64,000 nucleotides of DNA, from the NCBI GenBank assembly GCA_964016885.1, contig OZ024740.1, positions 155,930,001 through 155,994,000 on the forward strand, read 5' to 3'. The notes beneath the pieces were generated by a model, which worked only from the letters and a program-made list of their open reading frames with translations, ran no database searches and was not told the DNA's origin. Of the stretch, positions 16,961-61,290 are shown piece after piece (position 1 is the stretch's first letter; every line of letters begins with the position of its first letter). The DNA comes from Eledone cirrhosa. Lineage: Eukaryota. The translations under genes and the position numbers were made by a program.

Positions 16961-17005
<45 letters not shown>

Positions 17006-21541: not shown

Positions 21542-21584
<43 letters not shown>

Positions 21585-21695
21585 CATGCCACTGTACGTC
21601 TGTATACATATATGTATGTACGTATACATACATATTTACATTTAAGTAAGTGCCGTACTAAGAGTGAGAAATGAAATTTCGTTTCATTCTATTCC

Positions 21696-21700
<5 letters not shown>
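21355..21700. mobile_element. Family E fold-back fragment (no ribozyme)
   Basis: Homologous to 7035-7263, in inverted plus direct arrangement. Confidence 0.7.
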
Positions 21701-21737
<37 letters not shown>

Positions 21738-21739
<2 letters not shown>

Positions 21740-30985: not shown

Positions 30986-31193
30986 TAGGAACAAGTAGGA
31001 CACCGACGGCTGAGCTCAAGCCGTTTCGACGGCTAATTCTGGACGAATTAGCCGTCAGTCCAGAATTAGCCGTCGAAACGGCTTGAGCTCAGCCGTCGGG
31101 GTCCTACTTGTTCCTATTACCCACTCTACTACCCTCAGTATTGAGTACTTTGGTGCGTTATGGTCCATCTGGTTCCTTACCACATTTCCTTCG

Positions 31194-31195
<2 letters not shown>
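30986..31195 (+). mobile_element. Family D short fold-back insertion
   Basis: Same arms and tail as 19481. Confidence 0.8.
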
Positions 31196-33891: not shown

Positions 33892-34477
33892 TTGTTATTC
33901 CTTGAATCTCAGTCATTGATGTTGGTTAACTGGAAAGTCCGTTGGATTGAATATCAAGCCACTACCTGCAGCCTCAGATATTCAGGACGTATCGGAGGGT
34001 TCTTGCTGTTCCAAGCAAGCATGCCTTTTGAAGCGTTCCAAAAAGCGTGAAGGGGCCGATTTTCTTTAACCATCCCTGGAAACTTTTGGAGATAGTCCCC
34101 AGTGCGCCTATGACAATCGGGATCACTTTGACTTCATGGCAGTTCCAAATCCTTTTCACCTCCCACTTTAGGTCCTGGTATCGGTTAATTTTCTCCCTCT
34201 CCTTCTCTTGCACTCTCGTGTCGAACGGGCAGGCCACATCCACAATCAGACACGATCTTTTTTCTTTGTCCACAACCACCAGGTCAGGTCTATTGTGTTC
34301 CAGTTTTTTGTCCGTCTGTATCCTAAAATCCCACAGCACCTTCACCTGATCGTTCTCCATCACCGCCTCTGGCCTATGCTCATACCATTTCTCAGAATGT
34401 GGTAAATTGTTTACTTTGCACAGGTGCCAGTGGATCACCCTGCCCATCACATCGTGTCTCCAGCCCTTATAATTATA

Positions 34478-34525
<48 letters not shown>

Positions 34526-35897
34526 GTTCTTTGAGTCTCAGTCATTGATGTTAATTAACTGGAAAGTTTGTTGAAATGAATATCAAGCTCTACCTGCAGC
34601 GTCAGATATTCAGGACGTATCGGAGGGTTCTTGCTGTTCCCAGCAAGCATGCCTTTTGAAGCGTTCCAAAAAGCGTGGTGGGGCCAATTTTCTTTAACCA
34701 TCCCTGGAAACTTTTTGAGATAGTCCCTAGTGCGCCTATGACAATCGGTACCACTTTGACTTTATGGCAGTTCCAAATCCTTTTTACCTCCCACTTTAAG
34801 TCCTGGTATCGGTTAATTTTCTCCCTCTCCTTCTCTTGCACTCTCGTGTCGAATGAGCAGGCCACATCCACAATCAGGCACGATCTTTTTTCCTTGTCCA
34901 AAACCACCAGGTCAGGTCTATTGTGTTCCAGTTTCTTGTCCGTCTGTATCCTAAAATCCCACAGCACCTTCACCTGATCGTTTTCTATCACCGCCTCTGG
35001 CTTATGCTCATACCACTTCTCAGAAGTGGTAAATTGTTTACTTTGCATAGGTGCCAGTGGATCACCCTGACCATCACATCATATCTCCAGCCCTTATAGT
35101 GAGTCTGGGATAGGTGTTTACACTCGGATACAATGTGAGCCACAGTCTCCTCTCTCTCTCCACAGATCCTGCACAGTGGGCTAGCCTCCTCGTTGTAAAT
35201 ATTGTTTCAACCACTTCGTTTTGAGGGCCTGCTTCTGCGCAGCCATTAGCATTCCTTCTGTAGCCTTTTCAAGGTCACCTCTTTTCAACCAGTTCCATGT
35301 CTGTGGATCTCTGAATTCAGTTTTCTCAAAGAAGGTACTATGAAGGGATTTTTCATATTATTATTATTATTATTATTGTTGTTATTCCTTGAATCTCAGT
35401 CATTGATGTTGGTTAACTGGAAGGTCCGTTGGAATGAATATCAAGCCACTACCTGCAGCCTCAGATATTCAGGACGTATCGGAGGGTTCTTGCTGTTCCA
35501 AGCAAGCATGCCTTTTGAAGCGTTCCAAAAAGCGTGAAGGGGCCGATTTTCTTTAACCATCCCTGGAAACTTTTGGAGATAGTCCCCAGTGCGCCTATGA
35601 CAATCGGGATCACTTTGACTTCATGGCAGTTCCAAATCCTTTTCACCTCCCACTTTAGGTCCTGGTATCGGTTAATTTTCTCCCTCTCCTTCTCTTGCAT
35701 TCTCGTGTCGAACGGGCAGGCCACATCCACAATCAGACACGATCTTTTTTCTTTGTCCACAACCACCAGGTCAGGTCTATTGTGTTCCAGTTTTTTGTCC
35801 GTCTGTATCCTAAAATCCCACAGCACCTTCACCTGATTGTTCTCCATCACCGCCTCCGGCCTATGCTCATACCATTTCTCAGAGTGTGGTAAATTGT
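33892..35897 (-). mobile_element. Three tandem 5'-truncated R4/Dong-like copies (33892-34470, 34524-35356, 35378-35897)
   Basis: RLE domain RPDLVV..IVDVACP..EK..RY. Each copy is separated by (TAA)n. Confidence 0.9.
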
Positions 35898-35924
35898 TAT
35901 TATTATTATTATTATTATTGTTAT

Positions 35925-38223
35925 TGTTATTCCTTGAATCTCAGTCATTGATGTTGGTTAACTGGAAAGTCCGTTGGATTGAATATCAAGCCACTACCTG
36001 CAGCCTCAGATATTCAGGACGTATCGGAGGGTTCTTGCTGTTCCAAGCAAGCATGCATTTTGAAGCGTTCCAAAAAGCGTGAAGGGGCCGATTTTCTTTA
36101 ACCATCCCTGGAAACTTTTGGAGATAGTCCCCAGTGCGCCTATGACAATCGGGATCACTTTGACTTCATGGCAGTTCCAAATCCTTTTCATCTCCCACTT
36201 TAGGTCCTGGTATCGGTTAATTTTCTCCCTCTCCTTCTCTTGCACTCTCGTGTCGAACGGGCAGGCCACATCCACAATCAGGCACGATCTTTTTTCTTTG
36301 TCCACAACCACCAGGTCAGGTCTATTGTGTTCCAGTTTTTTGTCCGTCTGTATCCTAAAATCCCACAGCACCTTCACCTGATTGTTCTCCATCACCGCCT
36401 CTGGCCTATGCTCATACCATTTCTCAGAATGTGGTAGATTGTTTACTTTGCACAGGTGCCAGTGGATCACCCTGCCCATCACATCGTGTCTCCAGCCCTT
36501 ATAGTGGGTCTGGGCTAGGTGTTTACACTCGGACACAATGTGAGCCACAGTCTCCTCTCTCTCTCCACAGATCCTGCACAGTGGGCTAGCCTCCTCCTTG
36601 TAGATATGGTGCTTCAACCACTTCGTTTTGAGGGCCTGCTCCTGCGCAGCCATTAGCATTCCTTCTGTAGCCTTTTTGAGGTCTCCTCTTCTCAACCAGT
36701 TCCATGTCTGTGGATCTCTAAATTCAGTTTTCTCAAAGAAGGTACTATGAAGGGATTTTCCCTTAAGGCTGCTCTTCCTCCTTGATGTTATTTCCTCCCT
36801 GGACATCCCCTGGCCTACTGTCCCCTCCTTCAGTACAGTTCTGAGCATTGGCTCCTTACTATAGGTCACGTATTTGTATAGGTTGTTTTTCTCCATCTGA
36901 ACACAGTCCTCTATGCTGATAAGACCTCTTCCACCCTCAGATCTCCTTAGGTAGAGTCTATCGACATCACTCCTCTTGTGGAACATGTTGTAGATAGTCA
37001 ATAGCTTCCTAGTCTTCCTATCCATTTCTTTTTGTTCAGCAACATTCCATCTCAGAATTCCCGCACTGTACCTAATAATAGACACAGCTCGGGAATTTAC
37101 TGCGCTTATGGCATTTCTGCTGTTCAGATGTGATTTCAATATGCTCCTTACTCTCCGAATGTATTCAGTTCTTAACAATTCCTTCATTTTTTTGTTCTTT
37201 ATGCCATCAGCCTCCAGAACGCCCAAATACTTGTATCCTTCCTCAGAGTCAATTTCCTTTATCATCTCACCTGTTGGTATCTGGATCCCATTACTTCTGC
37301 TCAACCTACCCCTCTTCATCACAATGACTCCACATTTACCAATACCAAACTGCATACATATATCACTGCTGAAAATACGGACAGTGTCAACAAGCACATC
37401 CAACTCCTTCTCACTTTTCCTGAAGAGCTTAAGATCGTCCATGAAGAGGAGGTGATTGATGGTAAGCTCTCCCCTTCCCAACTTGTATCCTGCTCTCACT
37501 TTTCGCAGCATAATGGTCAAGGGCATCAGGGCAAGGACAAACAACAGAGGGGACAGGCTATCTCCCTGGAAGATACCTCTCTTGATCTTCACGCTTCCCA
37601 AGGATACTCCAGTTGATGTCAACTCTGTCTCCCAGGACCCCATACTCCTGCCTAGCAACTGTCTGATGTTATCTGCCACCCTGAAGATCTCCAGGCTTTT
37701 GGTGATCCAGGAATGAGGCACCATGTCAAATGCCTTTCTGTAGTCTATCCATCCCATGGCAAGATCAGTGTGTCTCCTCCTGCAATTCCCCATTACCATC
37801 TTATCAATAAGCAACTGGTCCTTTGTACCACGTGACTTCTTTCGGCATCCTTTCTGTTCGTCCGGTAACAAGTTGTTTGTGTGGAGGTGATGGTAGATTT
37901 CCTCAGACACAATGCTCGTCAACAGTTTCCACATTACGGGCAGACATGTGATAGGTCTATAGTTGGTAGCATCATTACCCTTGATTCGGTCTTTCATTAT
38001 CAGAACTGTGGTACCTTTTGTCAACCACTCTGGCACCTCACCCGACACCAAGCAGTCATTGAACATGGCCGTCAGCTTCGGGTGGAGGGATGTTAGATGT
38101 TTAATCCAATACCCCTGCACACCATCTGGGCCTGGTGATTTCCAGTTGGTTAGTTTTTTGGCTTGCCCCTTAAGAGTTTCAACTGTGATACTCAAATCAG
38201 TCTGTTGCTGTGCCTGCTCACCG
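35925..38223 (-). mobile_element. R4/Dong-like non-LTR retrotransposon, open RT + CCHC + RLE frame (36006-38223), 5' truncated
   Basis: SPGPDG, YRPI, DYRKAFD, GIFQGDSLSP, FMDD, CRIC..H..C and PD-(D/E)xK motifs. (TAA)n flanks. Confidence 0.93.
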
Positions 38224-38272
<49 letters not shown>

Positions 38273-38594
38273 TTATTCTTTTTCGCAATTCTCCAAAAGT
38301 TCTGTTCCATCAGTCTCATTACCACTTTTCTCTTTTCCTCTCCTCTTTCTTCTCTCTATACCCTTCACATTTCTCATCTCATGCTTTAGACTATCTTTTT
38401 TCCCTTCTCTCCCGCTCTCTGTTCAATATGTAGTTATATCTTAACCCAACTTGTTACTATACATATAGTATCCAGCTGACTACAACTACCCTTGGCGCTA
38501 AAATATCCTACACTTTTATCAAAATTCATATACACTCATTGCTTCAAACCTTTTCAATTAATGTTTACACACCCACAGACACATATATACAAGG

Positions 38595-39210: not shown

Positions 39211-42200
39211 GTATAGTGTAGTCAGTGTGATACTATACATATAGTGTAGTCAGTGTGATACTATACATATAGTGTAGTCAGTGTGATACTATACATATAG
39301 TGTAGTCAGGGTGATACTATACATATAGTGTAGTCGGGGTGATACTATACGTATAGTGTAGTCAGTGTGATACTATACATATAGTGTAGTCGGGGTGATA
39401 CTATACATATAGTGTAGTCAGTATGATACTATACATATAGTGTAGTCAGTGTTATGCTATACATATAATGTACTCAAGGTGATACTATACATATAGTGTA
39501 GTCAGTGTGATACTATACATATAGTGTAGTCAGTGTGATACTATACATATAGTGTAGTCAGTATGATACTATACATATAATGTAGTCAGTGTGATACTAT
39601 ACATATAGTGTAGTCAGTGTGATACTATACATATAGTGTAGTCAGGGTGATACTATACATATAGTGTAGTCAGGGTGATACTATACATATAGTGTAGTCG
39701 GTGTGATACTATACATATAGTGTAGTCGGTGTGATACTATACGTATAGTGTAGTCGGTGTGATACTATACATATATTGTAGTCGGTGTGATACTATACGT
39801 ATAGTGTAGTCGGTGTGATACTATACGTATGGTGTAGTCAGTGTGATACTATACATATAGTGTAGTCAGTGTGATACTATACATATAGTGTAGTCAGTGT
39901 GATACTATACATATAGTGTAGTCAGTGTGATACTATATGTATAGTGTAGTCAGTGTGATACTATACATATAGTGTAGTCAGTGTGATACTATACATATAG
40001 TGTAGTCGGTGTGATACTATACATATAGTGTAGTCAGGGTGATACTATACATATAGTGTAGTCAGTATGATACTATACATATAGTGTAGTCAGTGTGATA
40101 CTATACATATAGTGTAGTCAGTGTGATACTATACTTATAGTGTAGTCAGTGTGATACTATACATATAGTGTAGTCAGTGTGATACTATACATATAGTGTA
40201 GTTAGTGTGATAATATACATATAGTGTAGTCGGTGTGATACTATACATATAGTGTAGTCAGTGTGATACTATACATATAGTGTAGTCGGGGTGATACTAT
40301 ACATATAGTGTAGTCGGTGTGATACTATACATATAGTGTAGTCAGTATGATACTATACGTATAGTGTAGTCAGTGTGATACTATACATATAGTGTAGTCA
40401 GTGTGATACTATACATATAGTGTAGTCAGTGTGATACTATACATATAGTGTAGTCAAGGTGATACTATACATATAGTGTAGTCAGTGTGATACTATACAT
40501 ATAGTGTAGTCGGTGTGATACTATACATATAGTGTAGTCAGTGTGATACTATACATATAGTGTAGTCAGTGTGATACTATACATATAGTGTAGTCAGTGT
40601 GATACTATACATATAGTGTAGTCAGTGTGATACTATACATATAGTGTAGTCAGTGTGATACTATACATATAGTGTAGTCAGTGTGATACTATACATATAG
40701 TGTAGTCAGTGTGATACTATACATATAGTGTAGTCAGTGTGATACTATACATATAGTGTAGTCAGTGTGATACTATACATATAGTGTAGTCAGTATGATA
40801 CTATACATATAGTGTAGTCAGTGTGATACTATACATATAGTGTAGTCAGTGTGATACTATACGTATAGTGTAGTCAGTGTGATACTATACATATAGTGTA
40901 GTCAGTGTGATACTATACATATAGTGTAGCCAGTGTGATACTATACATATAGTGTAGTCGGTGTGATACTATACATATAGTGTAGTCGGTGTGATACTAT
41001 ACATATAGTGTAGTCGGTGTGATACTATACATATAGTGTAGTCAGTATGATATTATATATATAGTGTAGTCAGGGTGATACTATACATATAGTGTAGTCA
41101 GTGTGATACTACACGTGTAGTGTAGTCAGTGTGATACTATACATATAGTGTAGTCAGGGTGATACTATACATATAGAGTAGTCAGTGTGATACTATACAT
41201 ATAGTGTAGTCGGTGTGATACTATACATATAGTGTAGTCGGGGTGATACTATACATATAGTGTAGTCAGTGTGATACTATACATATAGTGTAGTCGGTGT
41301 GATACTATACATATAGTGTAGTCAGTGTGATACTATACATATAGTGTAGTCAGTGTGATACTATACATATAGTGTAGTTAGTGTGATAATATACATATAG
41401 TGTCGTCGGTGTGATACTATACATATAGTGTAGTCAGTGTGATACTATACATATAGTGTAGTCGGGGTGATACTATACATATAGTGTAGTCAGTGTGATA
41501 CTATACATATAGTGTAGTCGGTGTGATACTATACATATAGTGTAGTCAGTGTGATACTATACATATAGTGTAGTCAGTGTGATACTATACATATAGTGTA
41601 GTTAGTGTGATAATATACATATAGTGTAGTCGGTGTGATACTATACATATAGTGTAGTCAGTGTGATACTATACATATAGTGTAGTCGGGGTGATACTAT
41701 ACATATAGTGTAGTTGGTGTGATACTATACATATAGTGTAGTCAGTGTGATACTATACATATAGTGTAGTCGGTGTGATACTATACATATAGTGTAGTCA
41801 GTGTGATACTATACATATAGTGTAGTCAAGGTGATACTATACATATAGTGTAGTCAGTGTGATACTATACATATAGTGTAGTCAGTGTGATACTATACAT
41901 ATAGTGTAGTCAGTGTGATACTATACATATAGTGTAGTCAGTGTGATACTATACATATAGTGTAGTTAGTGTGATACTATAAATATAGTGTAGTCGGTGT
42001 GATACTATACGTATAGTGTAGTCGGTGTGATACTATACATATATTGTAGTCGGTGTGATGCTATACATATAGTGTAGTCGGTGTGATACTATACATATAG
42101 TGTAGTCAGTATGATATTATATATATAGTGTAGTCAGGGTGATACTATACATATAGTGTAGTCAGTGTGATACTACACGTATAGTGTAGTCAGTGTGATA

Positions 42201-45200
42201 CTATACATATAGAGTAGTCAGGGTGATACTATACATATTGACTAGTCAGGGTGATACTATACATATAGAGTAGTCAGTGTGATACTATACATATAGTGTA
42301 GTCAGTGTGATATTATACGTATAGTGTAGTCAGTGTGATACTATACGTATAGTGTAGTCAGTGTGATACTATACATATAGTGAAGTCAGTGTGATACTAT
42401 ATATATAGAGTAGTCAGGGTGATACTATATATATACTGTAGTCAGTGTGATACTACACGTATGGTGTAGTCAGGGTGATACTATACATATAGTGTAGTCA
42501 GTGTGACACTATACATATAGTGTAGTCAGGGTGATACTATACGTATAGTGTAGTCAGGGTGATACTATATATATACCGTAGTCGGTGTGATACTATACGT
42601 ATAGTGTAGTCAGGGTGATACTATACATATAGTGTAGTCAGTGTGATACTATACATATAGTGTAGTCAGGGTGATACTATACGTATAGTGTAGTCAAGGT
42701 GATACTATACATATAGTGTAGACAGTGTGTTACTATACATATAGTGTAGTCAGGGTGATACTATACATATAGTGTAGTCAGTGTGATACTATACATATAG
42801 TGAAGACAGTGTGATACTATATATATAGAGTAGTCAGGGTGATACTATATATATACTGTAGTCAGTGTGATACTACACGTATGGTGTAGTCAGGGTGATA
42901 CTATACATATAGTGTAGTCAGTGTGACACTATACATATAGTGTAGTCAGTGTGATACTATACATATAGTGTAGTCAGTGTGATACTCTACGTATAGTGTA
43001 GTCAGTGTGATACTATACATATAGTGTAGTCAGTGTGATACTATACATATAGTGTAGTCAGTGTGATACTATACATATAGTGTAGTCAGAGTGATACTAT
43101 ACATATAGTGTAGTCAGAGTGATACTATACATATAGTGTAGTCAGAGTGATACTATACATATAGTGTAGTCAGTGTGATACTATACATAAAGTGTAGTCA
43201 GGGTGATACTATACATATAGTGTAGTCGGGGTGATACTATACATATAGTGTAGTCATTGTAATATTATACGTATAGTGTACTCTGGGTGATACTATACAT
43301 ATACTGTAGTCAGGGTGATACTATACATATAGTGTAGTCAGTGTGATACTATACATATTGTGTAGTCAGGGTGATACTATACATATAGTGAAGTCAGGGT
43401 GATACTATACATATAGTGTAGTCAGAGTGATTCTATACATATAGTGTAGTCGGGGTGATACTACACATATAGTGTAGTTAGTGTGATACTATATGTATAG
43501 TGTAGTCAGTGTGATACTATACGTGTAGTGTAGTCGGGCTGATATAATACGTATAGTGTAGTCAGTGTGATACTATACATATAGTGTAGTCAGTGTGATA
43601 CTATACATATAGTGTAGTCAGGGTGATACTATACATATAGTGTAGTCAGGGTGATACTATACGTATAGTGTAATCAGCGTGATACTATACATATAGTGTA
43701 GTCAGTGTGATACTATACATATAGTGTAGTCAGGGAGATACTATACATATAGTGTAATTAGTGTGATAATATACATATAGTGTAGTCGGTGTGATAATAT
43801 ATATATAGAGTAGTCAGTGTGATACTATATATATAGTGTAGTCAGTGTGATACTATACATATAGTGTAGTCAGGGTGATACTATACATATAGTGTAGTCA
43901 GGGTGATTCTATACTTATAGTGTAGTCAGTGTAATACTATACATATAATGTAGGCATGGTGATACTATACATATAGTGTAGTCAGGGTGATACTATACGT
44001 ATAGTGTAGTCGGGGTGATTCTATACATATAGTGTAGTCAGTGTGATACTATAAATATAGTGTAGTCGGTGTGATACTATACATATAGTGTAGGCAGGAT
44101 GATACTATACATATAGTGTAGTCAGTGTGATACTATACATATAGTGTAGTCAGTGTGATACTATAAATATAGTGTAGTCGGTGTGATACTATACATAGAG
44201 TGTAGTCGGGTTGATAATATACAATATAGTCGGGGTGATACTATACATATAGTGTAGTCGGTGTTATACTATACGTATCGTATAGTCGGTTGATACTATA
44301 CATATAGTGTAGTCAGTATGATACTATACATATAGTGTAGTCAGAGTGATGCTATACATATAGTGTAGTCAGTGTGATACTATACATATAGTGTAGTCAG
44401 AGTGATGCTATACATATAGTGTAGTCAGTATGATACTATACATATAGTGTAGTCAGTGTGATACTATACATATAGTGTAGTCAGGGTGATACTATACATA
44501 TAGTGTAGTCAGCGTGATACTATACATATAGTGTAGTCAGTGTGATACTATACATATAGTGTAGTCAGGGTGATACTATACATATAGTGTAGTCAGAGTG
44601 AAACTATACATATAGTGTAGTCAGTGTGATACTCGACATATATTGTAGTCGGTGTGATACTATACATATAGTGTAGTCAGGGTGATACTATACGTATAGT
44701 GTAGTCAGTGTGATACTATACATATAGTGTAGTCAGGGTGATACTATACATTTAGTGTAGTCTGTATGATACTATACGTATAGTGTAGTCAGTGTGATAC
44801 TATACGTATAGTGTAGTCAGTGTGATACTATACGTATAGTGTAGTCAGTGTGATACTATACATATAGTGTAGTCAGGGTGATACTATACATTTAGTGTAG
44901 TCTGTATGATACTATACATATAGTGTAGTCAGTGTGATACTATATCTATAGTGTAGTCAGTGTGATACTATACGTATAGTGTAGTCAGTGTGATACTATA
45001 CATATAGTGTAGTCAGGGTGATACTATACATTTAGTGTAGTCTGTATGATACTACACGTATAGTGTAGTCAGTATGATACTATACATATAGTGTAGTCAG
45101 TGTGATACTATACATATTGTGTAGTCAGGGTGATACTATACATATAGTGTAGTCAGTGTGATACTCTACGTATAGTGTAGTCAGTGTGATACTATAAATA

Positions 45201-47626
45201 TAGTGTAGTCGGTGTGATACTATACGTATAGTGTAGTCAGTATGATACTATACATATAGTGTAGTCGGTGTGATACTATACATTTAGTGTAGTCTGTATG
45301 ATACTATACATATAGTGTAGTCAGGGTGATACTATACATATAGTGTAGTTAGGGTGATTCTATACTTATAGTGTAGTCAGTGTGATGCTATAAATATAGT
45401 GTAGTCAGGGTGATACTATACGTATAGTGTAGTCAGTGTGATACTATACATATAGTGTAGTCAGTGTGATACTATACATATAGTGTAGTCAGTGTGATAC
45501 TCTACGTATAGTGTAGTCAGTGTGATACTATACATATAGTGTAGTCGGTGTGATACTATACATATAGTGTAGTCAGTGTGATACTATAAATATAGTGTAG
45601 TCGGTGTGATACTATACGTATAGTGTAGTCAGTATGATACTATACATTTAGTGTAGTCAGGGTGATACTATACATATAGTGTAGTCAGTGTGATACTATA
45701 CAGATAATGTAGTCGGTGTGATACTATACATATAGTGTAGTCAGTGTGATACTATACATATAGTGTAGTCAGTGTGATACTATACATATAGTGTAGTCGG
45801 TGTGATACTATACATATAGTGTAGTCGGTGTGATACTATACATATAGTGTAGTCAGTGTGATACTATACATATAGTGTAGTCAGTGTGATACTATATTTA
45901 TAGTGTAGTCAGTGTGATACTATACATATAGTGTAGTCAGTGTGATACTATACGTATAGTGTAGTCAGTGTGATACTATACATATAGTGTAGTCGGTGTG
46001 ATACTACACGTATAGTGTAGTCAGGGTGATACTATACATATAGTGTAGTCAGTGTTATGCTATACATATAATGTACTCAAGGTGATACTATACATATAGT
46101 GTAGTCAGTGTGATACTATACGTATAGTGTAGTCAGTGTGATACTATACGTATAGTGTAGTCAGTGTGATACTATACGTATAGTGTAGTCAGGGTGATAC
46201 TATACGTATAGTGTAGTCAGTGTGATACTATACGTATAGTGTAGTCAGTGTGATACTATACGTATAGTGTAGTCAGTGTGATACTATACATATAGTGTAG
46301 TCAGTGTGATACTATACGTATAGTGTAGTCAGTGTGATACTATACGTATAGTGTAGTCTGTGTGATACTATACATATAGTGTAGTCAGTGTGATACTATA
46401 CGTATAGTGTAGTCAGTGTGATACTATACATATAGTGCAGTCGGTGTGATACTATACGTATAGTGTAGTCAGTGTGATACTATACATATAGTGTAGTCAG
46501 TGTGATACTATACGTATAGTGTAGTCAGTGTGATACTATACATATAGTGCAGTCGGTGTGATACTATACGTATAGTGTAGTCAGGGTGATACTATACATA
46601 TAGTGTAGTCAGTGTTATGCTATACATATAATGTACTCAAGGTGATACTATACATATAGTGTAGTCAGTGTGATACTATACGTATAGTGTAGTCAGGGTG
46701 ATACTACACGTATAGTGTAGTCAGTGTGATACTATACGTATAGTGTAGTCAGGGTGATACTATACATATAGTGTAGTCAGGGTGATACTATACATATAGT
46801 GTAGTCAGTGTGATACTATACATATAGTGTAGTCAGTGTGATACTATACATATAGTGTAGTCAGTGTGATACTATACATATAGTGTAGTTAATGTGATAC
46901 TATACATATAGTGTAGTCAGTGTGATACTATACATATAGTGTAGTCGGTGTGATACTATACATATAGTGTAGTCAGGGTGATACTATACATATAGTGTAG
47001 TCAGTGTGATATTATACGTATAGTGTAGTCAGTGTGATACTATACATATAGTGTAGTCAGTGTGATACTCTACGTATAGTGTAGTCAGTGTGATACTATA
47101 CATATAGTGTAGTCAGTGTGATACTATACATATAGTGTAGTCAGTGTGATACTATACGTATAGTGTAGTCAGTGTGATACTATACGGATAGTGTAGTCTG
47201 TGTGATACTATACATATAGTGTAGTCAGTGTGATACTATACGTATAGTGTAGTCAGTGTGATACTATACATATAATGTAGTCAGTGTGATACTATACATA
47301 TAGTGTAGTCAGTGTGATACTATACGGATAGTGTAGTCTGTGTGATACTATACATATAGTGTAGTCAGTGTGATACTATACGGATAGTGTAGTCAGGGTG
47401 ATACTATACATATAGTGTAGTCAGTGTGATATTATACGTATAGTGTAGTCAGTGTGATACTATACATATAGTGTAGTCTGTGTGATACTATACATATAGT
47501 GTAGTCAGTGTGATACTATACATATAGTGTAGTCAGTGTGATACTATACATATAGTGTAGTCTGTGTGATACTATACATATAGTGTAGTCAGTGTGATAC
47601 TATACGGATAGTGTAGTCAATGTGAT
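39211..47626. repeat. Satellite, 28-bp unit ATAGTGTAGTCAGTGTGATACTATACAT, about 300 copies
   Basis: Period of 28 read directly. One register shift near 44220-44290. Confidence 0.98.
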
Positions 47627-48471
47627 AAATTACGATATTTTTGTTTCTTGAGTTGAAAGTGGTGAAAGGATTGGCAGGACAGATTATGAATGCGTCTTTC
47701 TTGGTGTCCTCCCCACATAACCGATTCTGAGAGACAGTAAGAAAGAGAGAGAGAGAGAGAAGAGGGAGAGAGATAGGTGTAGAGAGAGAGAGAGAGAGAG
47801 GTGTGACTGGTACCTTATTTATCAACGCTGTAAATATGAAAGTCATAGCTAGCCTCGGCGGGATTTGAATTCAGAGATTCACTTTTTCCTCTTCTCTTGA
47901 AGAAATCTGCTGTATTCAGAACTAGATAGGAGTTGGGCTCCGCCAGGTTTTAAAATGTTCTAGAAACGCCATATGTCAATACGACAACAGGCTATCGGCT
48001 TGTGGGTGGAGCAGTATTGTAATCTGTATCACCTAGCACTTTATGAAATCGGGATAAGCTCCGATCTGACGCGACTCGAGCTCCGAGACAGACTTTAGAA
48101 ATTCTCTAAAATTAAGCTCAATCCTGTGTCAAATCCATTACGTGATTTGTTTTTATTTATAGTCGAAGTATTTTCTCTTCACTTGCAGCACGTACTCACT
48201 ATCGAGCCACTAACGCGGAAGCTGGTGCTGTCGTAGGGAAATGGAGGGGCTACGTCGAACGCTTCTGATATAGCTTTCTCACTTCTATTCTTTCAAATTT
48301 TCCTCTTCTCTGGAAGAAATCTGCTGTATTCAGAACTTGATAGGAGTTGTGCTGCGCCAGGTTTTAACATGCCCTAGAAACGCCGTATGTCAATATGGCG
48401 CCCCTACGACTCCCTCAGGAATTACGGGTCCATATATACATACAATATTAAAAACAGGATTTCAGACTTAC

Positions 48472-49076: not shown

Positions 49077-49125
<49 letters not shown>

Positions 49126-49234
49126 AAAATGGCGTGCTGCGTGGTTGCACATGGGTTACATTTGAATAAAATTTGTCCTTCATCAGTGATCTTCCAACCT
49201 TCATTGACATTTCTTCGCTTTAAAGATCATATAC

Positions 49235-49650
49235 CTCTGGTTGGTGCGAGCAGTAACTAAAGAAAGTTATTGGGACACGTAAAATAGGGTGAAGCGAGCG
49301 AGAGATGTAAACAAACATAGATGGTTATGCAACGGAAAGAGAGGAAGAGGAGAAACAAGTCCGTGATATCTATGAACTTAAGTTCGGTGAAATCATAGAC
49401 GAGAGGTAAAGACCATCCGACCTGGGCGAGATGTGAGCGAGAAAAGGATTTCACACAGGTCAAACGGGAGGAATTGAGAGAGGGAGAGAAGCAGAGAGTG
49501 AGTGAAAAGGCGAGGAAGAGGCCAGCTGAGAGAGAGTGACTGGCTATAGCTCTGGTTGGTACGAGCAATAACAAAAAAAAAGTTATTGGGACACGTAAAT
49601 TAGGGTGAAGCGAGCGAGATATGTAAACAAACGGAGATGGTAATGCAAAA
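49235..49650. repeat. Imperfect ~100-bp direct repeats (49235 and 49551); similar pair at 47885 and 48298
   Basis: Direct reading. Confidence 0.6.
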
Positions 49651-49800
49651 ACCAGAAAAACAACAAACGTTTTAAGGCCATTTCCCCACTAAAACACGGG
49701 TTAGTATTGCGGGCCCTGTGCTAAGCTTCTCCAATGTGAGAGAAATTTGAAAGATGCAAGCTGTGCAGAAGACCATCGTGTATATATATATATATATATA

Positions 49801-50607
49801 TTAGAAATTATAAGCTTTCACAGACTAAAGAAATTTCTAGCCTGATAGTGGGGTTTATAACCCTCGGAGAAATGGAAAAAGATGAGAGTTGCAGTACATG
49901 GGAGTCGAACCCACATCTTTGGTTATCCAGACCAATGTGCTACCATTACACCAATACACATCCCGTCTCCTTCCATTCGAATTAGAAGCTATGAACTTAG
50001 CAAGTGAATGATAAACAAGCAAATTATAAATGTAAACATGTAAGTATGTTTTTGAAACGGTGCGCGAGTTTGAAAATTAGAAATTAGAAATTATAAGCTT
50101 TCACCGTATTTTAGACTAAAGAAATTTCTAGCCTGATAGTGGGGTTTATAATCCTCGGAGAAATGGAAAAAGATGAGTGCTGCTGTACATGGGAGTCGAA
50201 CCCAGATCTTTGGTTATTTGGTTAAAATACGGTGAAAGCTTATAATTTCTAATTTCTAATTTTCAAACTCGCGCACCGTTTCAAAAACATACATGTTTAC
50301 ATTTATAATTTGCTTGTTTATCATTCACTTGCTAAGTTCATAGATTCTAATTCGAATGAAAGGAGACGGGATGTGTATTGGTGTAATGGTAGCACATTGG
50401 TCTGGATAACCAAAGATGTGGGTTCGACTCCCATGTACGGCAACACTCATCTTTTTCCATTTCTCCGAGGGTTATAAACCCCACTATCAGGCTAGAAATT
50501 TCTTTAGTCTAAAATACGGTGAAAGCTTATAATTTCTAATTTCTAATTTTCAAACAAGCGCACCGTTTCAAAAACATACTTACATGTTTACATTTATAAT
50601 TTGCTTG
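49801..50607. mobile_element. Family H: tandem/fold-back 287-bp repeat containing a tRNA-like unit
   Basis: Left arm 49801-50217(-) is ~1.45 monomers and right arm 50223-50607(+) is ~1.3 monomers. (TA)n flanks. Confidence 0.85.
50372..50442 (+). tRNA. tRNA-like cloverleaf (repeat-borne, non-canonical anticodon loop CTGGATA); mirror at 49890-49960(-)
   Basis: D-arm GTGT/GCAC, anticodon stem TTGGT/ACCAA, T-arm GTGGG TTCGACT CCCAT, imperfect acceptor stem, T5 tract ~10 nt downstream. Confidence 0.65.
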
Positions 50608-50645
<38 letters not shown>

Positions 50646-50764
50646 TACACACACATATATATATATATATACACACACGCACATACATATATATATATAT
50701 ACACACATACATATATATATATATGTATATATATGTATGTATATATATATATATATATACACAC

Positions 50765-50805
<41 letters not shown>

Positions 50806-50851
50806 ATATATATATATGTATATATATACATACATATATATATACACATAC

Positions 50852-50882
<31 letters not shown>

Positions 50883-50929
50883 CATATATATATATACATA
50901 TACATATATATACACACATACATATATAT

Positions 50930-50964
<35 letters not shown>

Positions 50965-51091
50965 CAAACACACATATATATATGTATGTGTATATATATG
51001 TGTGTGTGTGTGTGTGTATGAGTGTATATATATATACATGTGTGTGTGTGTGTGCGTGTATATATGTATATGTGTGTATATATATATATAT

Positions 51092-51696
51092 TTTACTCTT
51101 TTAGCTGTTTCAGCCATCCGGCTGAGGCCATGCTGGGGCACCGCCCTTGTTGCTACACATTTTATCTCCAGCCTGTAATGGTTTGCCACTGGTGCAAGAG
51201 GGTGTTCGTTGCTGCTGCGCTTAGGTTTCCATCGTGCCTTGCTATGGGCTCATCCGGGATCCTGGATAGCAAGGTGTCGAGATGTTTCTTGAAAACATCC
51301 ACAACCACACCATGCAGATCTCTCGGATCCCTTGGCAGCTTGTTGAAGTGTTGAGGGCCCTTGAACCCCAGGCTATTGCAATATCTGCTCCTTATTCTAG
51401 ATGTGGAAGACGGGACCTTTGGCACCACACAGGGACGTCCTGTTCGGGGGTTGGTCCAGCTCCCAATGCCAAAGTTTGGTGCTAGTCTCTCCAGAATTTT
51501 CCACATGTATATCACTGCTTATCTCTCCCGTCTTCGTTCCAAGGTGTAGAGGTTCAGTTCTTTTAGCCTCTCCCAATAGCTTATCTCCTTCATCGTCTCA
51601 TTCCTCTTGGTGTAGCTTCGCTGGATTGCCTCAAGCTCCGTGGTTAGTTTGACACTATGGGGTGACCACAACTGGAAGCAATAGTCCAGGCAGCTT
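51092..51696 (-). mobile_element. CR1-group LINE 3' fragment
   Basis: [42 protein letters not shown]. Confidence 0.8.
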
Positions 51697-51806: not shown

Positions 51807-52479
51807 AAATGGAATAGAATGAAACGAAATTTCATTTCTCACTCTTAGTACGGCACTTACTTAAATGTAAGTATGTATGTATACGTACATACATATATGT
51901 ATACAGACGTACAGTAGTATGTATATATATACATACATGCACACATACATATATGCACGTATCAGTTTACCGAACATTTATTATAATGCTCGGTTTGTTC
52001 GTTTGTAAACAAACAAACAGCCTGAATTACGCCGTACAGTGTTTAGGCAACCACGTCACCTTTTTGTTCAACACTGACACAGAAACGATGTACTAGTTTC
52101 AAGCTTATTAGCTATCGTCAGCACCGTATACCTTTCTGCCAGATGGTTGAACGTCCGAAAGTATATACTTTCCTTATGAAAATTAACGGCTGAGCAGCCT
52201 AATTCGCATATCGAGTGAGTTCAGTCGGCCAGGCGCACCGAAAACGATAAATGGAATAGAATGAAACGAAATTTCATTTCTCACTCTTAGTACGGCACTT
52301 ACTTAAATGTAAGTATGTATGTATTATAATAAATGTTCGGTAAACTGATACGTGCATATATGTATGTGTGCCTGTATGTATATATATACATGCTACTGTA
52401 CGTCTGTATACATACATACTTACATTTAAGTAAGTGCCGTACTAAGAGTGAGAAATGAAATTTCGTTTCATTCTATTCC

Positions 52480-52483
<4 letters not shown>
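51807..52483 (-). mobile_element. Family E repeat (period ~441 bp) plus inverted arm; hammerhead at 52086-52126(-)
   Basis: CGGTG-CTGACGA-TAGCT AATA AGCTT-GAAA-CTAG-TA-CATCG. Direct repeat at 51807 and 52248. Confidence 0.85.
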
Positions 52484-52809: not shown

Positions 52810-53414
52810 AAGCCGCCTGGACTATTGCTTCCAGTTGTGGTCACCCCATAGTGTCAAACTAACCACGGAGCTTCAGGCATTCCAGCGAAGCTACACCAAG
52901 AGGAATGAGACGATGAAGGAGATAAGCTATTGGGAGAGGCTAAAAGAACTGAACCTCTACACCTTGGAACGAAGACGGGAGAGATAAGCAGTGATATACA
53001 TGTGGAAAATTCTGGAGAGACTAGCACCAAACTTTGGCATTGGGAGCTGGACCAACCCCCGAACAGGACGTCCCTGTGTGGTGCCAAAGGTCCCGTCTTC
53101 CACATCTAGAATAAGGAGCAGATATTGCAATAGCCTGGGGTTCAAGGGCCCTCAACACTTCAACAAGCTGCCAAGGGATCCGAGAGATCTGCATGGTGTG
53201 GTTGTGGATGTTTTCAAGAAACATCTCGACAACTTGCTATCCAGGATCCCGGATGAGCCCATAGCAAGGCACGATGGAAACCTAAGCGCAGCAGCAACGA
53301 ACACCCTCTTGCACCAGTGGCAAACCATTACAGGCTGGAGATAAAATGTGTAGCAACAAGGGCGGTGCCCCAGCATGGCCTCAGCCGGATGGCTGAAACA
53401 GCTAAAAGAGTAAA
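52810..53414 (+). mobile_element. CR1-group LINE 3' fragment, inverted near-identical twin of 51092-51696
   Basis: Same endpoints and almost identical sequence. Confidence 0.85.
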
Positions 53415-53814: not shown

Positions 53815-55198
53815 ATTGTTATACTTTGGTAGTGTCATGTTGCCAATAAGAAACACACGCACCAGTTGCTTTCACTTCAATTTATTATAATAAATTTATA
53901 AATTTCTGGTTGGTTGGTTGGTTCCACAACCAGAATTACAACCAAAATTAAATAGAAAATATGAGTGGAACAGCAACATCACAACTTACAATTAAGGACA
54001 AAATGAAAACACACACACACATAGAACAAACAACCAGCCAGTAACATGTAAATAAACAAATAAATAAATGAACATAAACACACACAGACACCCGGATGTG
54101 GCGCACGCGCAGACTAAGCACACAACACACACACAGAAACAAAATGGCGTAGGACAGAACAAAGGAGAGGCACAAAAACAAAGAAAAGAATCCCCAGTCA
54201 CTGAAGAGGTCACAGAGTGTGTGACGAAAGAACTATGACAATATATAAACAACTATCTGGTTGTGGAACCAAACCAACCAACCAGAAATTTATAAATTTA
54301 TTATAATAAATTGAAGTGAAAGCAACTGGTGCGTGTGTTTCTTATTGGCAACATGACCCTCCCAAAGTATAACAATATCGGTTTCAACACACGATTTCAG
54401 ATAAAGAATCTTGCTAAACAAATTCAGAAACGAAATATCGTAAGCCTTAGCCAAGCTAACAAGATACTGAAAACCACCATGTTCTGTTGTCTACGAAAAA
54501 CCATAACATCTCGACAACTACACTTCATAAAAGAATGTGCCTCGTCCCGAGTTTACACCAACACCATCAACACCGACGTAAGAAGATTACAACTCACCAA
54601 AAAACAAGCAGATAGGCTAAAACGAACACTAATTCTAAACATAAAAAAGATCTATAGAGAATTAAGTCATCAAGAAAAACATAAGCGTAACCTAATACAA
54701 GCAATAGCTAGGATCACCACACCAAGAGAGAAACTAATATTTATAAGCCTTATACGTCCCGAAGAACAGTACATTACTCAAGAATGTGATAAGCACTTTA
54801 ACAAGAAACTAAAGTGGCTTAAGCAGATAAAGCTAAATCAGGATACTGTAGAGAATACCAATAGATATCCCGACAAAATTGACGGTATAAATATGGCCGA
54901 CACCTCATTAACAGATGAGTTCAACAACAACAACAACACAAATATATACGGCAACACGGTAATAGATGACGATGAGTTATCTGTATTACTTCTACCACCG
55001 AAATTTGCGACATTCAAGAAGGTAAATATGATTAGTTGTCTGTCAGAAATAGAAAAATCCTTTACAAAACTACGTTGGAGCCTCAAAAACAAAAACAAAA
55101 ACAAAAGTAACAATATACGCACACACATATACAACACACATCCCAACAACAACAGACACACAGACACAAACAACAATAACAACAACACACACACCACC

Positions 55199-55233
<35 letters not shown>

Positions 55234-58200
55234 TAACATACCCAGAAACAACAACAATAGACACGCAGACACAAACAACAATAACAACACACAACAATAA
55301 TAACACACACGGAGACAACAACAACACACATCAACAACAGCACACATCAACAACAACAACACACACACATTCAATGCCTCTCACCACCACCACAATCTTA
55401 ACAAACACACAGACACAGAAAACAAGTAATGACAGTAGCACAGGAATCACAGAAATAAGGGGGAAAGTAATAGGATTAAAAGGAGAAGGGAGACTAAGGA
55501 CAAAGAAAATAACCAAAACGAACAGACAGACACACAAAATAGGGTAGATAACAACAATGAGCCAGTGGAAAGAGACAGGAGTAATTATGAGAGACATAGA
55601 AACAACTATGAGGCTGTTAGTGGAAATAGAAATAGAAACAACACAACTAACAATAACAATAGCACTAGTACACATAAAGCAGCAGCCTGGAACTCTACTT
55701 TTTATAATCCCTCCGATAAATTGTTCGACCTGCGACGAGTCCACGCCACGACTTTACCATTTAACAAACGCACGCAATTGCCGTCGCAGGTCGATGAACA
55801 AACAGAAGCACAATTTAGTATAGCTAGATCCGAACTTAGAAATATTATAGAACAGTATAGCAAGAAGCATAATAGAATGGAGGCCCAGCAACTGGGAGAA
55901 AAATCTGCAAATGGCTTGCGTAAGCTCATGCAGCGCTCGCGTAATAGAGAGATAGCATGCTTTCCAACAGACAAGTCTGGCAGAATGTCGGTTGACAGCC
56001 TGCCAAACTACATCCAGGCAATGCAACCCCCACATCACTAACACAAGAGAGGTAACACCACAGGAGCATGAGGATAGAGAAAAAGCCCTCAATGCCCATA
56101 TGGTGATGTGGACGAATATAATGCAGCCCAACAAAAGGACTGCCAACAACTTCCAGGCCTGGAACAATGACGTGCCGGCGTTGTATGGGCTTCGAAAAGA
56201 CCATAAAACGAGCAGTGACCCTGTCACGGGACCACCAACACGGCCAGTCTGTGGAGCTAACATTGCTAGTAACTACAGACTATCCTACTTCCTCTCCCTG
56301 ATCATACGCCCCATCATTGAAATGTCCCCAGATGTATGTGACAGCACGGAGGACCTCCTCAGCAGAATCGGCGAGAGTAACCGATCTAGGGACCTAACAA
56401 ACTGCATAATAGGTAGTATGGATGTTGTGTCCCTGTATTCATCTATTGACGTGGATTTTGCTGTGGAGAAATGCGTAGAAATGATCAGTGAGAGCAATGT
56501 TGAGTTCCGTGGGATTGATACCAGTGAGCTGGGACTCCTACTTAAACTTACCTATAGTAATAATTACCTAGACACATATGACCTTAGCAACCTGTGCCCT
56601 ATAAGACCAGCAAGAGGCAGACCACTTACCATTACCTCAATGGCCAAGAAAACCCACACAGATAGATGGAACGGGTGGACCAGAGCCATACGGACACCCG
56701 AAAACCACGATGAACTGAAGAAAATGATTGCACATGCGGTAGGGGCCAGCATAAAACTAACCCTTAAGGAACATATGTTCAAATTTAATGGAAAAACATA
56801 TGCCCAAGAGGAAGAAGCAGCCATTGGTGTTAGCATTGCAGGCGACATAGCTAACTTATTCATGGTATGGTGGGACAGTAGACTTAAACTTAAACTTAAA
56901 GAACAATTAGAAGACCCCTTAACCCTGATAATGTACTCCCGCTACGTTGATGATATAAACATCGTAGTTAAGACACCCCCCACTAGAGAACAGTCAGGAA
57001 CTAGAGAAAAACACAATGGAAAGCATCCAGCAAATAGCTAACTCTATCCACTAGAGTATTAGAGTTACTATAGACTACCCAAGTAAACACCCCAACCATC
57101 AATTACCTGTACTAGACACAGAGCTCTGGTTAGATACCATTAATAACAAAAAACAAATCCTCCATTCCCATTATGCCAAACCCATGACTTCCAAACATCT
57201 GATCCACCGAAACTCGGCCGTTTCGGACCATACTAAAATGAACATACTGATTGCGGATTTGGTACGGGTGATGAGAAACGTGTCCCGCATGTGCAACCCC
57301 GAAGAACTAGAGAGACACATACAACACTTCATCCACCGTATGCAGTTCTCTGGCTACAATCAGAGAGATAAAATCAGAGTGTATAGAGGAGCCAGAACCA
57401 AATGGGAAAAAATGGTAAATAATGACATAAATGGGACCTGCCCCTTGTATAGAAGCACATTTTGGAATAGAATAGAAAGAACTAGGAACAAGGCTAAGAG
57501 AATAAACTCATGGTATGATAGCAATAAATACCAGAGTGTAATGTTCATCGATACAACCCGTAGAGGTGAATTAGCTTACAAATTTAGAAGGGCCCTAGAT
57601 AAACATAAACTCAATATTAAGATAGTAGAAAGACCAGGTACCTCCGTAAAAACACTTATTAGCAAGACATACCCTTTTCAAAGACCCTCATGTATAGATA
57701 AGAAATGTATAACCTGTAAAATAAGCCCCCATATTAACTGTAAAACTAGAAATGTAGTGTATAGCATAAGATGTACTGAAGGACAATGTAGAGACAAAAA
57801 TATAGTGTACATAGGTGAGACAGCTCGTAGTGTAGGGGAACGGATAAATGAACACTGGCGAGACCTTCAAGATAGTAAAGAATCATCTGTACTCTACCAA
57901 CATGCTAAAATAGAACACAAGGGTAAATTAGAGAACATAGAAATAAAAATAGAATCTACACACAGAAAAGACGCAATGTTTAGACAAATCACAGAGGCAA
58001 TAAACATAAAAGAATTACAACCAAAATTAAATAGAAAATATGAGTGGAACAGCAACATCACAACTTACAATTAAGGACAAAATGAAAACACACACACACA
58101 TAGAACAAACAACCAACCAGTAACATGTAAATAAACAAATAAATAAATGAACATAAACACACACAGACACCCGGATGTCGCGCATGCGCAGGCTGAGCAC

Positions 58201-58530
58201 ACAACACACACACAGAAACAAAATGGCGTAGGACAGAACAAAGGAGAGGCACAAAAACAAAGAAAAGAATCCCCAGTCACTGAAGAGGTCACAGAGTGTG
58301 TGACGAAAGAACTATGACAATATATAAACAACTATCTGGTTGTGGAACCAACCAACCAACAAGAAATTTATAAATTTATAAATTTATTAATTTATTATAA
58401 TAAATTGAAGTGAAAGCAACTGGTGCGTGTGTTTCTTATTGGCAACATGACCCTCCCAAAGTATAACAATATCGGTTTCAACACACGATTTCAGATAAAG
58501 AATCTTGCTAAACAAATTCAGAAACGAAAT
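53815..58530 (+). mobile_element. PLE-A full-length copy: inverted pLTR piece (53815-53932), 5' pLTR (53933-54437), disrupted ORF 54329-58074, 3' pLTR (58012-58530)
   Basis: Classic partial-tandem PLE layout with RT and GIY-YIG motifs. Lesions near 55300, 56030, 56980 and 57052. Hammerheads at 54197-54239 and 58276-58318. Confidence 0.95.
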
Positions 58531-60324: not shown

Positions 60325-61290
60325 AGGAGTCTTATTTTTTAAAAAAATATATATATTTATTTGGTTTCTTTACCGGTTTCGCAGTTCTTCTGCTTTTCAA
60401 AAGTAGAGTTGAGATGGAGGGTCTGTAGTTTTTCTCACATCTGGTTGGTCTCTGAATGTTACTTGTTTTATATGGAAAAAGTGGCTCGAAATGCCAGGTT
60501 TTTCGAGAAGTAATTTGATTGGTTGGTCAATAATTATAATAAATTTCGCGGCAGTTCGCGTTACAAAGTTCTTCAAACAAGGGGGGGGGGGGGGTGTCAC
60601 AGGTTGTTTTTTCATATATGAGTGTTTGAATTTCTTTTTACTTAAAAAAAAGGGGGCTTACGAATGCTTTTTTAAAATAAACGTAATTTGATTGGTTATA
60701 AATGAAATTATGGCTGTCACGTGAACAAGTTTTCATTAAATTTTCGCGCCCTTATTTGGAAATCTATTCTGTAGCCTTTTTAGAGAATTTTATGACAAGT
60801 AAAAGATAATGGTCAAGAGAAATTGGGTGGGAGAATTGTATTGGTTCAGTGAATATGGTTAGTTCGCTGGGGTGTCAGAATTCAGATTTTCTATTGAATA
60901 AAAAAAAAGCAGTCGTGAGCCCCCTTTTTTTTTAAGTAAAAAGAAATTCAAACACTCATATATGAAAAAAACAACCTGTGACACCCCCCCCCCCCTGTTT
61001 GAAGAACTTTGTAACGCGAACTGCCGCGAAATTTATTATAATTATTGACCAACCAATCAAATTACTTCTCGAAAAACCTGGCATTTCGAGCCACTTTTTC
61101 CATATAAAACAAGTAACATTCAGAGACCAACCAGATGTGAGAAAAACTACAGACCCTCCATCTCAACTCTACTTTTGAAAAGCAGAAGAACTGCGAAACC
61201 GGTAAAGGAACCAAATAAATATATATATATTTTTTTAAAAATAAGACTCCAGTTGCATTTTCGATTTCATCTTTTTTTCTTTATATATAT
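60325..61290. mobile_element. PLE-B solo pLTR fold-back (60325-60897 minus, 60900-61290 plus)
   Basis: Homologous to 15770-16345. Inverted arms of ~350 bp, no ORF. Confidence 0.88.

Follow-up and report, generated by a model that had tools for sequence, protein, structure and literature searches.

Penelope-like elements (PLEs) insert as partial tandems, often with an inverted 5'-truncated copy, and bear a tail of 30-40 bp at one end, according to PMC8557442. The same source describes Naiad PLEs as preferring (TA)n, as present in Octopus and as lacking hammerheads, which are also missing from most Chlamys elements; it further reports a pLTR promoter in PLEs and their ability to take along host sequence. 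With purified PAc protein, reverse transcription begins at two internal sites, which define the tail, and PAc RNA with a dead hammerhead inserts as well as wild type, the main substrate being unprocessed RNA (PMC11167929). The circles of retrozymes are reported to be closed by RtcB (PMC7229834). In Schistosoma, tRNA-Gln-like hits map to the tandem repeat Sm-alpha (PMC2770079), and Sm-alpha and Sj-alpha are apparently transcribed by Pol III, each unit being driven by the one upstream of it (PMC6765202). In Helenus, a tRNA-like promoter lies within the LTRs, and read-through of the internal Pol III gene is reported for Cassandra and proposed for Helenus (PMC10886601). tRNA-derived SINEs are described as abundant in octopus (PMC13282606).

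We analyzed a 64-kb stretch of animal DNA rich in (TA)n, referred to here in its entirety as the window. An earlier note on this DNA had claimed a 287-bp monomer, present as more than one unit in each of two inverted arms that read outward into (TA)n. Self-BLAST of the window and inspection of the sequence confirmed this arrangement, with about 1.4 units in each arm. The element and its borders are laid out as follows.

49781..49800, no strand: left (TA)n target run (sequence)
49801..50217, minus strand: left inverted arm, 417 nt, about 1.45 units (self-BLAST and alignment)
50218..50222, no strand: fold-back junction (sequence)
50223..50607, plus strand: right arm, 385 nt, 1.34 units (self-BLAST)
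50469..50481, plus strand: 5-bp hairpin (fold)
50540..50607, plus strand: one-sided 3' extension (PLE-type tail), 68 nt, right arm only (self-BLAST and comparison of arms)
50608..51091, no strand: right (TA)n/(CA)n microsatellite (sequence)

The arms are 94-97% complementary by self-BLAST, and (TA)n directly adjoins the outer ends of both. The right arm consists of a full 287-nt monomer (50223-50509) followed by 98 nt of the next unit and ends at what we call the long site; it amounts to 1.37 units if an imperfect match back to 50214 is counted. The left arm has its 5' edge within the anticodon loop of the tRNA-like part described below, its 3' end at the short site and, in the alignment, an 8-nt deletion close to that end. 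Direct repeats are spaced by 287 nt in the right arm and 291 nt in the left. At the fold-back junction, the 5 extra nucleotides are a re-copied strand of the anticodon stem, with a 2-nt overlap with the right arm. Over 291 columns, 4 substitutions and 1 indel separate the full unit of one arm from that of the other, indicating that the fold-back is not a simple copy or read artefact. Within 98 nt, the adjacent units of the right arm show two base differences and a 4-nt indel; a variant that segregates among other copies matches one of the two bases. Such differences would be easier to reconcile with a linear multimer that came from a mixed array than with a circular monomer, but mutation or conversion at a later time may also account for them. 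In the hairpin, the 3-nt loop varies from copy to copy and the stem flanks recur. The whole 287-bp monomer did not stand out from shuffles in folding (z -0.10 and -0.70). Immediately to the left of the element lies a separate (TA)n-bounded piece (49124-49780) in which 104 nt recur as a direct repeat, spaced by 315 nt; at 49186 this piece also has an isolated hammerhead core word that lacks the remaining motif.

ARAGORN and Rfam detected exactly two tRNA-like genes in the 64-kb window, both inside the element and both reading outward, with Rfam scores above the gathering score of 29. The tRNA-like parts and the signals around them are listed below.

49876..49880, minus strand: T5 run (Pol III terminator-like), left arm (sequence)
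49890..49960, minus strand: complete tRNA-like cloverleaf, 71 nt, left arm (ARAGORN; Rfam RF00005, 43.4 bits)
50181..50217, minus strand: third tRNA-like copy, 3' half only, from anticodon loop to discriminator (self-BLAST)
50357..50371, plus strand: purine-rich leader upstream of the cloverleaf (sequence)
50372..50442, plus strand: complete tRNA-like cloverleaf, right arm, with A and B boxes (ARAGORN; Rfam RF00005, 43.5 bits)
50452..50456, plus strand: T5 run (Pol III terminator-like), right arm, monomer position 230 (sequence)

The cloverleaf is 71 nt long and has a 7-nt D loop, a 4-nt variable loop, an anticodon loop CU-GGA-UA with U at position 37 and a good B box. The internal cloverleaf with A and B boxes, the TTTTT terminator and the odd loop with a pyrimidine at 37 had been picked out in the earlier note, and ARAGORN, Rfam and the sequence bear them out. 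The T5 run begins 9 nt past the discriminator and is followed by a T4 run, so that the majority of Pol III transcripts should end after about 90 nt. A T run also follows the cloverleaf in another subfamily, as seen in a loose-end consensus. The cloverleaf presumably resembles tRNA-Gln in its D arm and tRNA-Arg in its anticodon and T arms.

The element is close to Schistosoma Sm-alpha and to Helenus. Its design, which had been put down as unrecognised, has precedents in Sm-alpha (a tRNA-related tandem SINE, apparently Pol III-transcribed, with a hammerhead) and in Helenus (a tRNA-like promoter in LTRs). Like Sm-alpha and Sj-alpha, the element is built of short, tRNA-related tandem units; Pol III transcription is apparent for Sm-alpha and predicted here. 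Unlike Sm-alpha, whose hammerhead is active, it has no hammerhead on the RNA strand, and its PLE-type fold-back and tail are features that the available accounts of Sm-alpha (PMC6765202, PMC2770079) do not state. With non-LTR retrozymes it shares non-coding tandem units of about 300 bp, low GC and proposed PLE partners (PMC7229834; bioRxiv 10.64898/2026.07.22.740005); as described there, retrozymes have a type I hammerhead in each unit and circular RNA, whereas the element has a tRNA-like cassette instead and no pLTR homology was found in it. The element works like a non-LTR retrozyme but lacks the hammerhead by which that class is defined.

The likeness to Naiad and Chlamys PLEs, as described in PMC8557442, comprises the lack of a hammerhead, partial tandems, an inverted 5' copy, a one-sided tail and microsatellite targets, and multicopy head-to-tail forms are shared with the non-autonomous Chlamys MRC1. 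In that account, the promoter of Naiad and Chlamys lies in the pLTR and no tRNA-derived part is stated, whereas the element carries an internal tRNA-like part; the tail measures 30-40 bp there and 68 nt here; and non-autonomous Chlamys share 3' sequence with their partner, whereas none was found for the element in the window (PMC8557442). Helenus and Cassandra (TRIMp3) likewise have a Pol III promoter of small-RNA-gene origin inside the repeated unit, a mismatch of isotype and anticodon, and tandem arrays, but are described as LTR-dependent, with PBS, PPT, fixed ends and target duplications of 4-5 bp (PMC10886601). The supplement of that paper has no octopus entry and only one 15-nt B-box word in common with the element. 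Unlike Helenus, the element ends at internal AT-rich sites into (TA)n and has inverted arms, and it is not a Helenus because it has no fixed LTR ends. On a check by eye for a polypurine tract and a PBS, the purine tract was seen to precede the cloverleaf and no PBS was recognised. Octopus tRNA-derived SINEs, said to have been described by Ohshima and Okada in 1994, share with the element a tRNA-derived Pol III head and probably the host group, a likeness drawn from description only. Unlike tRNA-headed SINEs, the element has its tRNA inside the unit and its units are joined without tails, so that it is not a conventional SINE. In the open literature searched, no hammerhead-free, tRNA-bearing, PLE-mobilised repeat is described; Repbase, Dfam, closed journals and preprint supplements lie outside that literature and may contain the family. 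The available text of PMC13282606 and PMC5680766 gives no description of such a combination.

To describe the family, we used other copies of the monomer, parts of which are present in 11 of 14 sequencing runs (8 studies). Four of the 14 runs (X1, X4, X5 and X12) were aligned to one monomer, 49859-50149, and X2, X3, X6-X11, X13 and X14 were left out; X7-X11 hold small shares of the monomer. In X1, which is possibly the source sample itself, 1,395 contigs match the monomer, with 270, 351, 486 and 288 at 99% identity or more, 95-99%, 90-95% and below 90%, respectively, that is, 774 less than 95% alike. In X12, 2,231 of 12,467,656 reads match. Six contigs match in X5 and three in X4, two of the latter being 35-42 nt of cloverleaf alone, which we treated as generic tRNA. 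Near-full monomers are also present in runs labelled as organisms B and C. Exact-pattern scans gave no match in metagenome contigs, viral contigs or prokaryote genomes.

An exact end-to-start (head-to-tail) joint was found in all four aligned runs, in 7, 1 and 1 contigs and in 221 X12 reads with 45 different starts, and loop variants of this joint account for 314 further reads. In all four runs the units join without any remnant of a tail. Summed contig depth, unsuitable as a measure of copy number, varies by more than a factor of ten within the spacer and is lowest just upstream of the tRNA, and the cloverleaf region is among the best-covered parts in both large runs, X1 and X12. The family is abundant, and it is clearly multi-copy, tandem, dispersed and two-ended. 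Both findings that the earlier note had named as telling against its reading failed to appear: the monomer is no single-copy locus, given its 1,395 X1 contigs and 2,231 X12 reads, and the other copies, with their internal tRNA, tail-less joints and (TA)n end sites, are neither conventional tRNA-headed SINEs nor a plain tRNA array.

Loose ends that clearly enter TA repeats form three of the 17 rows listed (251 in total), at 50011 (8 contigs), 50076 (4 contigs) and 50095 (74 raw reads); a fourth listed row is mixed. All TA-running ends are on the 3' side of the tRNA strand, and none of the 17 listed rows shows TA on the opposite side. The end at 50011 matches the right arm's long end (at the equivalent of 50016), and those at 50076 and 50095 correspond to the short end of the left arm (50084) or to a repeat of its heptamer 7-8 nt away. 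There are two preferred 3' end sites, 68 nt apart. Three of the eight listed X1 pieces (pieces 5-7) start at 50011-50015, the long-end site, and piece 5, a copy of 108 nt, is 5'-truncated and has no tRNA. Homologous sequence upstream of the tRNA continues in loose ends at 49947 and 49958, and the 45-115 nt of spacer that separate the 3' end sites from the next tRNA form part of the unit. The earlier description of the element as tandem, fold-back and inserted in (TA)n holds for the family, but permuted is too loose a term, as other copies reuse the same two 3' sites. At 50073-50076 (monomer position 38-41), the short 3' end sites coincide with a T4 run of the tRNA strand or directly precede it; this run may be a second stop for Pol III.

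Among the 15 joints listed (18 in total), six change strand, with side lengths that fit outward-reading arms, and two of these six are also present in contigs; the 15 do not include the junction at 50218..50222. All six read-end piles listed for X12, a reduced-representation library, fall at AATT sites, so that its strand-switch joints may include ligation chimeras. In four of the six strand-switch joints, one arm has its edge at 49886, which is 4 nt past the discriminator; mismatch clipping could hide a true edge at the discriminator, and the library favours short arms. A 5' edge inside the anticodon loop is seen in two independent fold-back arms (50217 and a joint at 49924); stalling of the RT or cleavage of the loop is possible, and the cases are too few to judge.

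We then examined sequence variation in the cloverleaf, with X12 read counts drawn from 40 of 65 variant rows. Position 33 is changed in 357 of 1,056 reads and position 34 in 109 of 1,054, and the 27-43 pair is broken in 902 of 1,020. The A and B boxes are kept in most reads, with changes in 112 of 1,094 at G53 of the B box and in 85 of 735 at G12 of the D stem. All six acceptor-stem variants listed keep or restore pairing, one of them only if it is linked to another, in which case a subfamily would possess a full 7-bp acceptor stem; as evidence for processing this pattern is weak, since transitions often yield G-U pairs by chance and the linkage is assumed. Judged from its sequence, the cloverleaf is a decayed tRNA look-alike and not a decoding tRNA, because it combines a serine anticodon with the lack of a long arm, has U37, varies at 33 and 34, and has a mostly broken 27-43 pair. 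In isolation, the cloverleaf does not fold better than its shuffled versions (z +1.17 and +0.87), and 116-nt folds of the region gave z -1.24 and -1.75. We dropped the idea of a terminal stem that leader and trailer would close around the cloverleaf, since 980 of 2000 shuffled trailers pair equally well.

To search for hammerheads, we used a custom descriptor, which supersedes an earlier, stricter scan that had found only two motifs. Its output for the window was 22 rows, of which 13 are clear motifs belonging to four other families. The clear hammerheads located in fold-backs of these other families read outward. On the tRNA strand of the monomer, the descriptor found no hammerhead at zero or one core mismatch. 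A type I match on this strand at two core mismatches was rejected (35 of 100 shuffles yield one), as were loose type III matches (one at one mismatch, a few at two). The opposite strand holds one candidate.

50070..50133, plus strand (opposite to the tRNA): weak variant-core hammerhead-like candidate (descriptor match)

This candidate accounts for 3 of the 22 descriptor rows, one per copy, and is equalled in 2 of 100 shuffles. It reads inward, and its stem I has at most 3 of 4 pairs in the monomer, with 4 of 4 in one alternative parse of the copy at 50553. The full-length X4 and X5 copies, as well as seven X1 contigs, have lost one core base, and a base of its GAAA is changed in 24 of 240 X12 reads. 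Inward reading, weak stem I and disruption in some copies led us to judge it a chance match, possibly a relic. The claim that the element has no hammerhead accordingly stands for the tRNA strand and is qualified by this weak candidate on the other. In E-value searches of the element, Rfam detected no ribozyme family, with HDV-like, twister and pistol run without a positive control; Rfam also misses a clear minimal hammerhead at 54201, and its blank was therefore discarded for hammerheads. A crude motif scan of the element showed neither an HDV loop nor a twister core; it gave a single pistol word of 5 letters, which is uninformative.

The window also contains PLEs, among them the following.

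53817-58528, also 7583-11202 and 3766-5194: near-complete PLE family (RT, C-terminal GIY-YIG-like region, minimal hammerhead, broken frame)

The copy at 53817-58528 has a textbook PLE layout, with an inverted 5' piece, a partial tandem, hammerheads at 54201 and 58280, and (TA)n on both sides; its inverted arm stops 60 nt short of the end of the direct copy, giving two 3' sites. Its region 55956-58074 has a weak RT match below the Pfam cut-off and matches the GIY-YIG frame of 17214-18887 at E 1e-07. The RT and GIY-YIG frames at 17214-18887 pass the Pfam cut-offs, indicating an autonomous-type PLE in the same genome. Of the 42 listed relatives of the main retroelement protein of the window, the only one assigned to an organism comes from Octopus bimaculoides, at 55% identity, which makes an octopus the probable host. 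One-sided extensions on other fold-back families in the window measure about 35, 60, 75-82 and 100 nt. The monomer shares with the rest of the 64-kb window only AT-rich words of at most 22 nt, with no homology to PLE sequence; within the window, no similarity of its 3' end to an autonomous PLE partner, no match to a LINE-shared 3' end and no similarity to SINE-like repeats was found, and a target-site duplication is indistinguishable inside (TA)n.

Other repeats of the window were recorded alongside. A PLE family at 15737-18924 and 60326-61285 has a hammerhead with a U3-A8 variant core and a palindromic loop III, in outward fold-backs, and a probable decayed relative lies at 5823. Family B is retrozyme-like (about 480 nt, hammerhead, tandem, with a microsatellite-like stretch inside) and occurs at 982-1465, 6426-7266, 21467-21698 and 51808-52482; a 12-nt AT-rich word common to the monomer and family B, near the 3' end of the latter, was rejected at E of about 1. 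Family C consists of small (TA)n fold-backs with a one-sided tail of 75-82 nt (19484-19682, 21085-21288, 21739-22355 and 30988-31194), one of them a perfect palindrome, and the descriptor and ARAGORN found neither hammerhead nor tRNA in the pieces present. A near-perfect fold-back (99%) at 12640-13206 carries two hammerheads that read outward, at 12843 and at 13106, and its left arm extends about 100 nt further. An inverted 604-nt pair (51092-51695 and 52811-53414), 99% identical and (TA)n-bounded, surrounds a retrozyme-like insertion. A 28-bp minisatellite of about 300 copies with 92% matches spans 39212-47627, and a non-LTR RT element (767-aa frame, minus strand) at 33900-38309 is followed by three repeats of its 3' part between (ATT)n runs.

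Taken together, the tandem and fold-back forms, the one-sided tail, the two 3' sites and insertion into (TA)n support the earlier proposal of a non-autonomous element moved by a PLE, and we consider PLE-type mobilisation of this family highly probable. Multi-copy, tandem, 5'-truncated and fold-back forms with (TA)n endings at two preferred sites are seen directly in the family, and we infer an RNA intermediate, a PLE partner, a polymerase and a role for the cloverleaf. If mobilisation is of PLE type, a promoter role for the cloverleaf is somewhat favoured; the full explanation, namely mobilisation in trans by a (TA)n-targeting PLE of a unit that carries a tRNA-derived Pol III cassette, we hold to be evenly balanced between true and false. 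In this explanation, the A and B boxes of one tandem unit would start a transcript that sometimes crosses T5 into the next one or two units. The PLE protein would bind this uncut multimeric RNA and nick (TA)n, and its RT would start at either of two internal AT-rich spacer sites, 68 nt apart. Priming off both target strands, or a template switch, would yield the inverted upstream arm from the short site and the direct arm from the long site. An insertion of more than one unit would recreate a promoter with a downstream unit and could become a new source. Because PAc inserts without cleavage and Naiads have no hammerhead, the layout needs multimeric RNA and a PLE protein, and not a cutting step. 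Against this explanation, the 3' end shared with a partner, usual in non-autonomous Chlamys, was not found in the window, and the kept pairing of the acceptor stem, which a bare DNA promoter does not need, counts against a promoter-only role. The changes at G53 of the B box and G12 of the D stem also weigh against it, as do the T5 and T4 runs, at which the bulk of Pol III transcription should end.

The element may instead be PLE-mobilised with the tRNA-like part as a passenger, that is, a captured tRNA gene or SINE head in a unit transcribed by Pol II read-through from the flank or from a PLE promoter; the cloverleaf may then yield merely a short Pol III by-product or a TFIIIC site. The T5 run directly behind the cloverleaf marks a self-contained gene and implies mostly short Pol III products, the use of a pLTR promoter and the capacity to carry host sequence are known of PLEs, a truncated copy without the tRNA exists (piece 5 of X1), and family C has the same architecture with neither hammerhead nor tRNA in its pieces. 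A passenger would hardly be expected, however, to be among the best-covered regions with its boxes kept in most reads; a 287-nt unit leaves little room for a second promoter, and Helenus and Cassandra keep internal Pol III genes as promoters. We regard the passenger explanation as unlikely.

A further explanation, likewise unlikely in our estimate, also has the element PLE-mobilised but takes the cloverleaf as a processing signal, at which RNase P, RNase Z or both would cut the multimer to units or to a free 71-nt RNA. RNase P and RNase Z read the acceptor/T half of a tRNA, and all six listed acceptor variants keep or restore pairing while the anticodon arm decays; the RNA strand has no hammerhead, and the clustering of four of six strand-switch joints at 49886 points the same way, although read length, the bias of the library and stalling of the RT at a helix are confounders. 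PAc can do without cleavage and Naiads have none, and the cloverleaf lies intact in mid-copy in the genome, so that the template was uncut or circular. RtcB takes hammerhead-type ends and not the 5'-phosphate and 3'-OH ends left by RNase P and RNase Z, which makes the ligation known from retrozyme circles unsuited here. Moreover, adjacent units of the right arm differ as in a multimer, cutting by both enzymes would part the tRNA from the spacer, and the isolated cloverleaf does not outfold its shuffles. A class of tRNA-retrozymes, PLE hitchhikers possibly spread across phyla whose tRNA mimic, selected for its acceptor/T half, recruits host tRNA-processing enzymes, along with Pol III, to cut or circularise their RNA in the way hammerheads do in retrozymes, is doubtful to the same degree. 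The suggestion that tRNA processing takes the place of ribozyme cleavage is unsupported as a need, given Naiads without hammerheads, insertion of uncut PAc RNA and the similar family C. Pol III transcription, which the earlier note had named as an alternative, is the likelier role, and the cloverleaf, on sequence grounds, is most likely an internal Pol III promoter and not a stand-in for a ribozyme.

Very improbable is an origin unrelated to PLEs, as a (TA)n-tailed, tRNA-headed SINE or a tRNA-derived satellite with tandem and inverted forms arising at the DNA level or by misassembly, since, for all that octopus is rich in tRNA-derived SINEs, that the window holds no homology of the monomer to PLE sequence, that the junction at 50218..50222 is missing from the 15 joints listed of 18 and that summed contig depth is lowest just upstream of the tRNA, unit joints are tail-less in four of four runs, the 45-115 nt from the 3' end sites to the next tRNA belong to the unit, 4 substitutions and an indel over 291 columns set the arms apart, PLEs in the same window have matching two-site ends, and the depth, with its more than tenfold swings inside the spacer, gives no copy number.

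tRNA-derived promoters are paired with LINEs in SINEs and with LTRs in Helenus and Cassandra, and the element with its putative Pol III cassette looks like the counterpart for Penelope-like elements. tRNA scans of such genomes will report many false serine tRNAs. A 287-nt non-coding unit with the entire PLE insertion signature is a minimal substrate for questions about PLEs: what the PLE protein recognises, why there are two internal starts, and whether hammerheads matter.
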